A DNA stretch of 9,748 nt from a virus (Duplodnaviria; Heunggongvirae; Uroviricota; Caudoviricetes). The DNA lies in the IMG/VR virus record IMGVR_UViG_2671180603_000017, positions 1-9,748 of that record; one strand, given 5' to 3'. Below the pieces are notes generated by a model. It worked only from the letters and a program-made list of their open reading frames with translations. It was not told the DNA's origin and searched no databases. Below are positions 1,045 through 3,595 of the stretch, piece after piece; position 1 is the stretch's first letter; each line of letters starts with the position of its first letter. Both the position numbers and the translations under genes were made by a program.

Positions 1045-1610
1045 GCTGAACCAGACGTTCGCTCCTACAGCACCAAATCAGGTCTGGGTGGCGGACCTGA
1101 CGTATGTTGCCACACAGGAGGGATGGTTGTACCTCGCTGGCATCAAAGATGTTTATACGTGCGAAATTGTCGGCTACGCCATGGGAGAGCGCATGACAAA
1201 AGAGCTGACAGGTAAAGCCCTGTTTATGGCGCTCAGGAGCCAGCGCCCACCTGCCGGGCTAATCCACCACTCTGATCGAGGTTCACAGTACTGCGCATAC
1301 GATTACCGGGTCATACAGGAGCAGTCTGGTCTGAAAACATCAATGTCGCGTAAAGGTAACTGTTACGACAACGCTCCGATGGAAAGCTTCTGGGGAACGC
1401 TGAAAAATGAGAGCCTGAGCCACTATCGTTTTAATAACCGGGATGAAGCCATCTCAGTAATACGGGAATACATTGAGATTTTCTACAATCGTCAGCGTTG
1501 TCACTCTCGTCTGGGGAATATCTCCCCGGCAGCCTTCAGGGAAAAATATCATCAGATGGCTGCTTAAAAAAAGAACAAATGGTAGTGTCCGCTATTGCCA
1601 GTACACCTCA
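1045..1610 (+). mobile_element. IS3-family (IS600-like) element, 3' fragment of 566 bp ending at the right terminus ...GCCAGTACACCTCA
   Basis: Near-exact reverse-complement copy of 2823-3388; contains the transposase OrfB C-terminal coding region; the terminus ends in CA as in the IS3 family. Confidence 0.8.
1046..1567 (+). pseudogene. IS600-like transposase OrfB, C-terminal fragment (5'-truncated, no start codon)
   Basis: Track ORF 1088..1567 has a C-terminal sequence identical to that of ORF 2866..3966; the reading frame is open back to the fragment boundary. Confidence 0.8.
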
Positions 1611-2154
1611 AAAGTAATTGTTCCACAGTCATATTTTTAATTGCGCCCCGGTTAACAAGAGTCCATCCCTGTTTTTCCAGATAAAACCGGAAAGTCTCCA
1701 GGGGACAGACCAGTGCGCCATCAGGAACGGTTTCGGTGAATTCGACATTGCCGAATTTGTCGAAGTGAACAACCAGAGTGCGACCATCACCCGGAATCAT
1801 CTTGTCAGCAGGTGGGGTGTTATTCTGGCGCAGTTCGGCCTCCATGCGGTCGAACTCAGCAATGTATGCCTCTTTGAATGCGGCGGCTTTTTTGCCCGTG
1901 AAGCCCATCACCAGGAAAACGAAGCCGTTTTTGGTGATTTGGTACATTGGGAGTTTGCGCCCGGTTGAGTCGGTGTATTCGCTCGACACAAAATTGTGCT
2001 CAGTGAATTTTGCTGAACAGTCCAGATTGCGAATTTTATCCAACACTCGTTCGTGGCGTTTGCCAAAGAACTCGGCGATCGCAACAGAGGTAGTGACAGC
2101 GCGACCATTTTCGATGGTTACGTCAGGGTGAGAAAGGGTAAGGATAGTAGCCAT
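1564..2154 (-). CDS. Rha-family antirepressor-like protein, module copy 2 (196 aa from ATG 2154-2152); divergent N-terminal domain, C-terminal tail and stop codon supplied by the abutting IS600 end
   Basis: Mosaic paralog of 76..627: residues after the Rha domain are identical, the Rha domain is divergent (MATILTLSHPDVTIENGRAVTTSVAIAEFFGKRHERVL...). The last 11 codons (LRCTGNSGHYHLFFF*) read into IS sequence. Confidence 0.6.
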   Translation of the reverse strand: MATILTLSHPDVTIENGRAVTTSVAIAEFFGKRHERVLDKIRNLDCSAKFTEHNFVSSEYTDSTGRKLPMYQITKNGFVFLVMGFTGKKAAAFKEAYIAEFDRMEAELRQNNTPPADKMIPGDGRTLVVHFDKFGNVEFTETVPDGALVCPLETFRFYLEKQGWTLVNRGAIKNMTVEQLLLRCTGNSGHYHLFFF

Positions 2155-2323
2155 GATGGCAGCCTCCGCGATGAATTTGATTAACTCACCACCGAGGTTT
2201 TCCACGACCATAAGGGTGGTGAGACGTACAGGGGTGGAAATACCGGTCATCACGGAACCCGGCCAGCCTTGCGGTTGCCCTGCACGCCCCACCATAATGC
2301 GAATGTGGCTGTGCTTAACGCAT

Positions 2324-2400
2324 AAAAAAACCGCCTGAGCGCGGTTATGCGCCGTGAATGATTTCGGGTTTCCACGCCCGGCACCCGTTTTATGAGGTGC
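2324..2400 (-). ncRNA. Putative small RNA, copy 2; second hairpin CGGG-CGUGGAAA-CCCG
   Basis: Same promoter (-10 at 2412-2407, -35 at 2435-2430) and terminator as copy 1; differs from copy 1 only in the hairpin-2 loop and one adjacent base; loop complementary to leader site 2231-2244 (mRNA sense GGUAUUUCCACCCC). Confidence 0.5.
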
Positions 2401-2406
2401 AGGTGC

Positions 2407-2435
2407 ACTATAATTCCACCCGTTCTGGTTTTCAA
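2407..2435 (-). promoter_or_regulatory. Sigma70-type promoter for small RNA copy 2 (TTGAAA, 17 bp, TATAGT)
   Basis: Sequence identical to the copy 1 promoter. Confidence 0.5.
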
Positions 2436-2474
2436 TAGCTACATTCAACATTTTCTCTCACCTTTCATCACCGA

Positions 2475-2628
2475 AGTGAATTTTGTTGATGCGGTGCCTG
2501 GTGCCTCCAGGTGACGTTAACCAGTTAACAATTACAGTTGGCTTTCCCACCCAAACCAATAAGGACTAACATGACTTTTAACTGTGCCGCGTGCGCATAG
2601 CCGCATTCACCGCATCACAAAATTCACT
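2475..2628. repeat. 23-bp inverted repeat (AAGTGAATTTTGTTGATGCGGTG / CACCGCATCACAAAATTCACTT) flanking a ~107-bp spacer; right arm continues as an inverted copy of the copy 1 upstream sequence
   Basis: Direct comparison with copy 1 (941-1002) shows the distal segment is in opposite orientation in copy 2. Confidence 0.6.
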
Positions 2629-2865
2629 TTAAAAAGGGCGGACATCAGCCAGCAATTAAACCGATGCCGCCAACTGGTACTTCACACAGCAATGTCGTTA
2701 TTTACAACCGGAGGCGCACTCCCACCATTTAAATTTAACAGACAAGACCGACTCTTTATGGATACCGGAAATGCGCCTTCGTGTTGTGCCCGGTTTTATT
2801 TCACCACCTCCGGGCTTTGGTATGAGGTGTACTGGCAATAGCGGACACTACCATTTGTTCTTTTT

Positions 2866-3594
2866 TTAAGCAGCCATCTGATGATATTTTTCCCTGAAGG
2901 CTGCCGGGGAGATATTCCCCAGACGAGAGTGACAACGCTGACGATTGTAGAAAATCTCAATGTATTCCCGTATTACTGAGATGGCTTCATCCCGGTTATT
3001 AAAACGATAGTGGCTCAGGCTCTCATTTTTCAGCGTTCCCCAGAAGCTTTCCATCGGAGCGTTGTCGTAACAGTTACCTTTACGCGACATTGATGTTTTC
3101 AGACCAGACTGCTCCTGTATGACCCGGTAATCGTATGCGCAGTACTGTGAACCTCGATCAGAGTGGTGGATTAGCCCGGCAGGTGGGCGCTGGCTCCTGA
3201 GCGCCATAAACAGGGCTTTACCTGTCAGCTCTTTTGTCATGCGCTCTCCCATGGCGTAGCCGACAATTTCGCACGTATAAACATCTTTGATGCCAGCGAG
3301 GTACAACCATCCCTCCTGTGTGGCAACATACGTCAGGTCCGCCACCCAGACCTGATTTGGTGCTGTAGGAGCGAACGTCTGGTTCAGCAGATTTGGCGCA
3401 ACTGGCAGATTGTGGTTCGAGTTCGTAGTCGCTCTGAACTTGCGTTTCTGCTTACAGCGTAGCCTTAGCTCCTTACGAAGACGTGCCAGTCGGTCACGAC
3501 CAACGATGATGCCATTCTCTGCCAGCTCCGTCTGGAGCCGCCGGGTTCCATATGTTTCGCGAGTGCGGATATGTGCCACCTTAATCTCCAGTTT
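2866..3594 (-). pseudogene. IS600-like transposase OrfB, C-terminal portion (DDE-type catalytic domain)
   Basis: Transposase-like sequence ...NQVWVADLTYVATQEGWLYLAGIKDVY...HHSDRGSQYCAY...SMSRKGNCYDNAPMESFW.... The track ORF 2866..3966 is artificially extended into the antisense strand of the IS911-like fragment. Confidence 0.75.
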
Positions 3595-3595
3595 A
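3381..3595. repeat. 215-bp direct repeat of internal IS600 sequence (partner copy 4272-4486) flanking the IS911-like fragment
   Basis: Near-identical runs read directly in the sequence. Confidence 0.85.

Follow-up and report, generated by a model that had tools for sequence, protein, structure and literature searches.

Scaffold gaps very probably account for truncated IS600 ends, a 214-bp duplication and paired breakpoints around an inverted IS600 pair in a Shigella sonnei prophage

The window analyzed here is a stretch of 9,748 nucleotides filed as IMG/VR virus record IMGVR_UViG_2671180603_000017. It belongs to a cryptic lambdoid (Rac/Qin-like), decayed prophage of Shigella sonnei and contains parts of two insertion sequences (IS) of the IS3 family, IS600 and IS911. 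For positions 1045-3595, the initial annotation described inverted 3′ fragments of IS600 around a segment termed module copy 2 (1611-2822), together with a 215-bp duplication, a junction with IS911, and two breakpoints that lie 7 bp apart inside IS600. The truncated IS600 ends, the 214-bp duplication, and the 7-bp breakpoint pair are very probably assembly artefacts of a short-read S. sonnei scaffold, and the real part is an ordinary inverted IS600 pair. The real structure is two inverted IS600 copies that flank a 1212-bp segment with rha, C4, isrK, a hairpin, and a DicF-like RNA. One copy is located at the rha 3′ end and the other at a GTG between the DicF-like region and the ydfA-side flank. 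The pair represents two independent or recombinant IS3-family insertions and is already-known IS biology.

The window corresponds to NCBI contig CXDK01000186.1 (GCA_001252175.1, an S. sonnei draft; locus L005), read in reverse over positions 1-9748. In a base-by-base comparison, the two agree at all positions but 1044, 3595, and 9606, with N in the record and A in the window. As the deposited record carries N at these positions, the window consists of four contigs scaffolded across single-N gaps: A (1-1043), B (1045-3594), C (3596-9605), and D (9607-9748). All three Ns coincide with repeat boundaries that were located independently by a repeat search. The N at 1044 immediately precedes an inverted arm that begins at 1045, the N at 3595 lies one base past the end of the first copy of a direct repeat (3594), and the N at 9606 one base before the second copy (9607) of a third direct repeat, 9343-9484/9607-9748. 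An ambiguous base call would not strike a homology breakpoint in three of three cases. Other S. sonnei draft scaffolds also contain single Ns, namely L013 (1388 and 3296), L014 (3007), and L015 (3768), and all four are found exactly at alignment breaks against the window, where partial duplications begin.

The apparent start of the left IS600 at 1045 and the apparent junction at 3594/3595 both mark places where contigs end within multicopy IS elements and are not sequenced junctions. The extent of the left IS600 part (1045-1610) is likewise set by a contig end and not by truncation. Piece D is 100% identical to the end of a DUF977 gene that adjoins an IS600 in the closed S. sonnei loci L012, L020, and L023. 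The apparent tandem repeat at the end of the window is a scaffold artefact created by the join at 9606, which is of the overlap type, since piece D duplicates 9343-9484.

The repeats themselves are far beyond chance, being IS copies. The inverted repeat (1045-1610/2823-3388) spans 566 nt with 100% complementarity and 1212 nt between its arms, so that the inverted IS600 3′ fragments around 1611-2822 are indeed present; two inverted IS600 copies also occur in the complete S. sonnei locus L004 (CP180280.1). The repeat search places the direct repeat at 3375-3594/4266-4485, and base-by-base reading gives an exact core of 214 nt (3381-3594 = 4272-4485). The reported 215-bp duplication is therefore an exact repeat in the supplied string, at a length of 214 nt, but it ends at the N gap at 3595 and is not an observed DNA structure.

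IS600 coordinates were counted from the left end of the 1264-bp element, with coordinate 1 at window position 4977, and the IS911 coordinates assume a length of 1250 bp for that element. On this scale, the left IS600 piece begins at 699, the right piece ends at 493, and IS911 abuts 706. The arithmetic of the 7-bp spacing is right (3388 versus 3381 in the window, 699 versus 706 in IS600), but 1045 is a contig end by N gap and only 4271/4272 is sequenced. The inference drawn from this spacing, a single ancestral event or a hotspot, is unfounded, as one of the two positions is a contig end and the duplication ends at a gap.

The elements are assigned by sequence identity and by domains. The IS600 pieces are 99.4-100% identical to copies annotated as “IS3-like element IS600 family transposase” and 100% identical to a 1264-bp copy in L004. 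The terminal inverted repeats (TGAGGT...) are read at 1610, 2823, and 4977. Pfam domains in the window’s transposases include HTH_Tnp_1, HTH_21, and rve, and both IS600 reading frames are found, orfA (HTH) and orfB (DDE/rve). The IS911 part contains the rve domain and is 99.7-99.9% identical to annotated IS911. Its right terminal repeat (...TTGACCACTTCA; also read as ...GTTGACCACTTCA) ends at 4271, and IS600 continues from 4272.

Closed and independent relatives show how the region looks where no gap interrupts it. Piece B is collinear with L004 over 11407-8858 at 99.92% identity without gaps. In L004, both IS600 copies have their full length of 1264 bp, are identical to each other, and are inverted around the same 1212-bp segment; the left IS600 of the window is represented there by a full-length copy at 10842-12105. 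The draft L006, which contains no Ns, carries one intact IS600 and no IS911 between module 2 and a flank equal to window 4978-5591. The description of the 3′ fragments as truncated copies very probably does not hold, as their truncation points are N gaps and the copies are full length in L004 and L006. The junctions between module 2 and IS600 (1610/1611 and 2822/2823) both recur in L004 and L006-L009 and are therefore real. Window 1-966 (dicB to rha allele 1) is 99.4-99.5% identical to the closed S. sonnei loci L012 (CP061367.1), L020 (CP032523.1), and L023. In these three, module 1 passes via the DicF-like region straight into a flank equal to window 4978-5454, with neither IS600 nor module 2 in between. 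The uninterrupted target site in L020 reads GGGCTTTGGTGGTATC.

The scaffold joins were not reproduced in independent assemblies, while gap characters stand at these junctions in the source record. Neither 1043/1045 nor 3594/3596 is found in 5,426 complete Escherichia coli genomes or in any fetched locus except the record itself. A chimeric open reading frame (ORF) across 3594/3595 (2866-3966, minus strand) has no corresponding protein on record. Two groups of E. coli matches were set aside. In 16 genomes that cover both halves of 3594/3595, the halves lie ~400 bp apart and belong to an unrelated remnant of IS600 and IS911 that adjoins a group II intron. Matches over 2823-4978 consist of separate IS600, IS30, and IS911 elements near a BCCT transporter gene that were merged by the search tool. 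The sequenced junction at 4271/4272 is also absent from the 5,426 genomes and from 72,556 plasmids. It has no exact matches in GTDB representatives or metagenome contigs, a result without bearing on Shigella, for which the GTDB collection probably includes no representative genome of its own; the same limit applies to the IS600/rha2 junction, for which no exact matches in GTDB representatives were found. All three junctions, 1043/1045, 3594/3596, and 4271/4272, are thus missing from the complete E. coli genomes. The finding of the initial annotation is partly confirmed: it is present in the string as supplied, not in sequenced DNA, and is not a real feature.

The Ns in the record, the collinear order in closed genomes, and the lack of the joins in other assemblies are observed; the course of assembly that follows is what we infer. 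The IS600, IS911, and rha-module stretches are exact multicopy repeats, which would collapse in a short-read graph and break contigs inside them. A scaffolder would then have joined the pieces on read-pair evidence, with a single N in each gap, although the pieces may overlap or be paralogous. The Ns were turned into A during preparation of the window. Three false features would result: a 5′-truncated IS600 at 1045, a 214-bp duplication around a truncated IS911, and a tandem copy at 9607. A pipeline of Velvet, SSPACE, and GapFiller was run on 299 S. sonnei samples and gave a mean of 405 contigs (PMC5320598). This pipeline puts N gaps at read-pair joins, its SSPACE and GapFiller steps are called greedy by its authors, with assumptions that can give false joins, and its short-read fragments are <1000 bp with a target of 300-500 (PMC5320598). 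GapFiller lengthens contig ends base by base with k-mers; unclosed gaps are mainly found in repeats, and misassemblies are frequent at contig ends (PMC3446322).

The junction between the IS911 end and IS600 at 4271/4272 (25-mer TTGACCACTTCAGGTTCAGCAGATT) is the only junction of the initial finding that lies inside contiguous sequence. As it carries a precise IS911 terminal repeat and is seen nowhere else, it is probably a genuine, strain-private insertion of IS911 into some IS600 copy. An exact repeat of 706 bp lies between this junction and the unique flank, and the same site is occupied by an intact IS600 in L006, so that the carrier of IS911 may be the IS600 copy beside this flank or another one. 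A contig end within 7-8 bp of the IS911 junction has a chance probability of ~1-4% (17/1264 per position pair, three pairs). Owing to this low probability, the contig end and the IS911 junction are probably linked, in a trivial manner. An IS911 insertion would create a branch in the collapsed IS600 repeat, and the contig assembled from the other side would stop nearby, at coordinate 699. Variation among IS600 copies was considered as another cause of the stops and set aside as an imprecise fit, as the 97.2% identical copy in L012 diverges from ~684. This diverged IS600-like copy lies at L012 18659-19921 beside ttcA and differs mainly from ~coordinate 684 onward.

Several observations weigh against the artefact explanation or parts of it. 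The contig end at 699 is not located at the expected graph branch (~703-706), and the S. sonnei copies of IS600 show no polymorphism at 699 or 493 to which the exact stops could be attributed. The target duplication beside IS600 is an imperfect 3 bp, GTA (2820-2822) versus GTG (4978-4980), with GTG at the empty site in L020. We infer the origin of GCA_001252175.1 in the pipeline of PMC5320598. Read pairs also lend a scaffold join some support, and the order A-B-C may therefore be correct in part.

If the window were truly contiguous and each N a single ambiguous base, it would contain a real 566-bp IS600 3′ fragment fused to prophage DNA and, to the right, an IS600 with a 5′-truncated IS911 in a 214-bp duplication, produced at a hotspot or in one complex event. 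The window shows no visible gap, and the 7-8 bp coincidence in a 1264-bp element, at ~1-4% by chance, makes a causal link likely. This contiguity is nevertheless extremely unlikely, as all three Ns of the window and the four Ns of three other scaffolds lie exactly on homology breakpoints, and the tandem copy of a gene end that the third N yields is obviously false. Neither join is found in any other genome, and closed relatives carry full-length IS600. IS3-family elements generate target duplications of 3-4 bp, which a duplication of 214 bp does not resemble, and we know of no IS3-family mechanism that would yield one of that length. It is very unlikely that a correct scaffold order, an IS911 truly at 706 in the module-2 copy, and possibly a second rearrangement end within a few bases in the other copy together reflect a site within IS600 orfB that is favored for insertion or breakage, for instance through IS911 targeting of a TGAACC sequence that resembles an IS end.

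Under the preferred explanation by scaffold artefact, the arrangement of the pieces can be read in two ways. The order may be right, with IS911 inserted in the IS600 beside the flank at 4978, the gap at 3595 hiding the 5′ 574 bp of IS911, and the 214 bp past 706 filled from intact IS600 copies. Piece C runs unbroken from the IS911 end across 706 bp of IS600 to the unique flank, and k-mer extension by GapFiller in a repeat would follow the majority copy. A 706-bp exact repeat, however, exceeds the usual short-read fragment and makes the threading ambiguous, and in the related draft L006 the site holds an intact IS600; this order has an appreciable chance of being correct, although below even. 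In the other reading, the IS600 beside module 2 is intact, the IS911/IS600 junction stems from another IS600 copy and was mis-threaded, and the pieces overlap rather than abut. This comes close to an even chance. It agrees with the intact copies in L006 and L004 and with the join at 9606, which is demonstrably of the overlap type, but it requires a threading error within a contig. SSPACE writes a single “n” where a predicted contig overlap is not found, a habit that would fit overlapping pieces. The GapFiller paper contains no statement on single-N gaps (PMC3446322).

Findings that rest on 1044, 3595, or 9606 are to be discounted in this window, namely the 214-bp duplication, the truncated IS911, the adjacency of module copies 1 and 2, and the terminal 142-bp repeat. 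The technical lesson is that single-N gaps written as A manufacture “junctions,” “truncated elements,” and “duplications.”

The initial annotation also proposed that the module can be inverted by homologous recombination. In principle, RecA-dependent inversion between identical inverted 1264-bp IS600 copies around 1.2 kb is physically possible, and L004 provides such full-length copies. An inverted isomer of the 1212-bp module was not seen in the window, L006, L004, and one similar closed genome, which is a tiny sample. The proposal is thus sound in a generic sense but finds no inverted isomer in the few informative assemblies. The module has one orientation relative to the informative flank in the window, L006, and L004, and the second closed genome with module 2 shows the same neighbors as L004.

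The outer flank of the IS600 on the DicF side differs between strains: L006 and the window have the ydfA-side flank there, L004 an IS911 remnant that adjoins a tRNA and Q. In L004, neither IS600 has matching 3-bp flanks, and the outer flanks read ...CATC and GGGA.... As the outer flanks differ and the 3-bp flanks do not match, the IS600 copies here have recombined with other copies. A composite transposon was considered and rejected, as no target duplication is shared (L004) and the outer flank varies between strains, which fits recombination better than transposition as a unit. A programmed invertible switch was rejected as well, as no invertase is found among the window’s genes, the repeats are whole IS copies, and one orientation only is seen in the window, L006, L004, and one similar genome.

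Further IS600 and IS911 arrangements were noted in related loci. In L004, at 7200-8365, the right end of IS911 directly follows a tRNA-like gene downstream of a Q antiterminator gene. The IS600 flanking module 2 cuts into this IS911 with its left end at ~coordinate 153, a nested insertion with flank exchange. Elsewhere, inverted IS600 pairs bracket a recE fragment of 1.5-2.4 kb, as in S. sonnei L012 (11725-15793; also in L023) and in another pair in E. coli strain 6883 (L002, 3303-8221). The IS600 beside gam in L012 and the IS600 beside rha2 in L004 appear to stem from one and the same insertion, and IS600 pairs in the prophage arm have apparently exchanged inner segments.

Table 1. Positions of scaffold pieces, gaps, insertion sequence parts, and prophage features in the window.
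Feature	Position	Strand	Remarks
Scaffold piece A	1-1043	(-)	dicB 5′ part, rha allele 1, C4 RNA, isrK, hairpin arm, reversed loop
Contents of piece A	dicB 5′ part 65->1; rha allele 1 76-921; hairpin arm 946-966	(-)	
Scaffold gap	1044		deposited record N, window A
IS600 3′ part, coordinates 699-1264	1045-1610	+	right terminal repeat ends 1610; left end of piece B
Module copy 2, prophage early-left segment	1611-2822	(-)	rha allele 2, C4 RNA, isrK, hairpin, DicF-like RNA
C4 antisense RNA (RF01695)	682-769, 2212-2299	(-)	76-79 bits, gathering 45
isrK RNA (RF01394)	794-870, 2324-2400	(-)	65-68 bits, gathering 50
Imperfect inverted repeat, 21/20 nt	2476-2496 / 2608-2627	(-)	encloses 111-nt loop
DicF-like RNA	2636-2686	(-)	28.6 bits, gathering 48; upstream of hairpin in transcription direction
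IS600, coordinates 1264-493	2823-3594	(-)	right end of piece B
Scaffold gap	3595		deposited record N, window A
IS911 3′ part, ~575-1250	3596-4271	+	rve domain; right terminal repeat at 4271; left end of piece C
IS600, coordinates 706-1	4272-4977	(-)	orfA 4611-4913; left terminal repeat ends 4977
Unique prophage flank	4978-5591		ORFs of 96 and 67 amino acids, ydfA-like DUF1391 gene
Scaffold gap and 142-bp piece D	9606 (N), 9607-9748		piece D is a 95% copy of 9343-9484

The segment between the IS600 copies is one of two rha modules in the window (Table 1). The ORF of rha allele 2 (1564-2451, minus strand) runs into the IS600 end, and the resulting rha2::IS600 fusion protein is on record as WP_052974466.1, “Rha family phage regulatory protein [Shigella sonnei].” In both modules, the C4 and isrK RNAs overlap the 5′ part of the long Ash/Rha ORF. 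The modules resemble a P1 immI-like regulatory cassette (c4-ant style) at the dicB-proximal gene position of a Rac/Qin-like prophage. The hairpin region 2476-2627 matches STnc100 weakly (29.9 bits, below gathering), and the order of DicF-like RNA and hairpin is the same as in the DicF-hairpin-dicB region of E. coli strain C5 (L010).

At the end of piece A, the last 77 nt (967-1043) correspond to the hairpin loop in reverse complement relative to the arm 946-966, a fold-back at the contig end. Among ~18 module copies in the fetched loci, the reversed loop occurs only here, and the arrangement is not found in the 5,426 E. coli genomes. It stems either from misassembly by fold-back at the contig end or from true inversion of the loop, with the short inverted repeats on either side. 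The two rha modules are 91% identical overall and include a block of 300 nt at 100% (92-391 versus 1613-1912). Module 2 further shares exact stretches of 91, 162, 82, and 223 nt with the module-1 locus, the last of which lies on the DicF side (window 2599-2821 = L020 9734-9956). This mosaicism reflects either recombination between prophages or partial assembly collapse.

Further to the right, the ydaT-like gene (6712-7133) has a 1-bp deletion at ~6749 compared to closed L012 (GTGCTGTT-GCCC versus GTGTTGTTAGCCC). The deletion splits a YdaT-family ORF of 140 amino acids into ORFs of 58 and 101 amino acids, as a pseudogene or through a draft error.

The features of the window can be compared to three known kinds of system. 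With short-read scaffolding and gap-filling artefacts (PMC5320598, PMC3446322), it shares single-N joins in multicopy repeats, partial duplications, and an anomalous contig end; unlike in those cases, the change from N to A arose here from preparation of the window and not from the assembler. The precise IS911 terminal repeat against an internal IS600 position is a signature of transposition and is also seen in nested IS3-family insertions. In contrast to a verified nested insertion, the other IS911 end and its target duplication lie outside the window, and the insertion is not assignable to one IS600 copy.

IS elements are abundant in Shigella and mediate rearrangements, and IS-flanked inversions of ~20-130 kb are described in S. 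sonnei from a screen that covered only those >7 kb (PMC12795559). In Shigella, it is routine for inverted IS600 copies to enclose part of a decayed prophage, and the arrangement carries little biological weight. The segment in the window differs from the inversions described in PMC12795559 by its length of 1.2 kb and by the single orientation in which it is seen. It is like the IS-mediated rearrangements of S. sonnei (PMC12795559) and the plasticity of pINV (PMC5629016) in that identical inverted IS copies lie around a chromosomal or prophage segment and the outer flanks are as expected after IS recombination.

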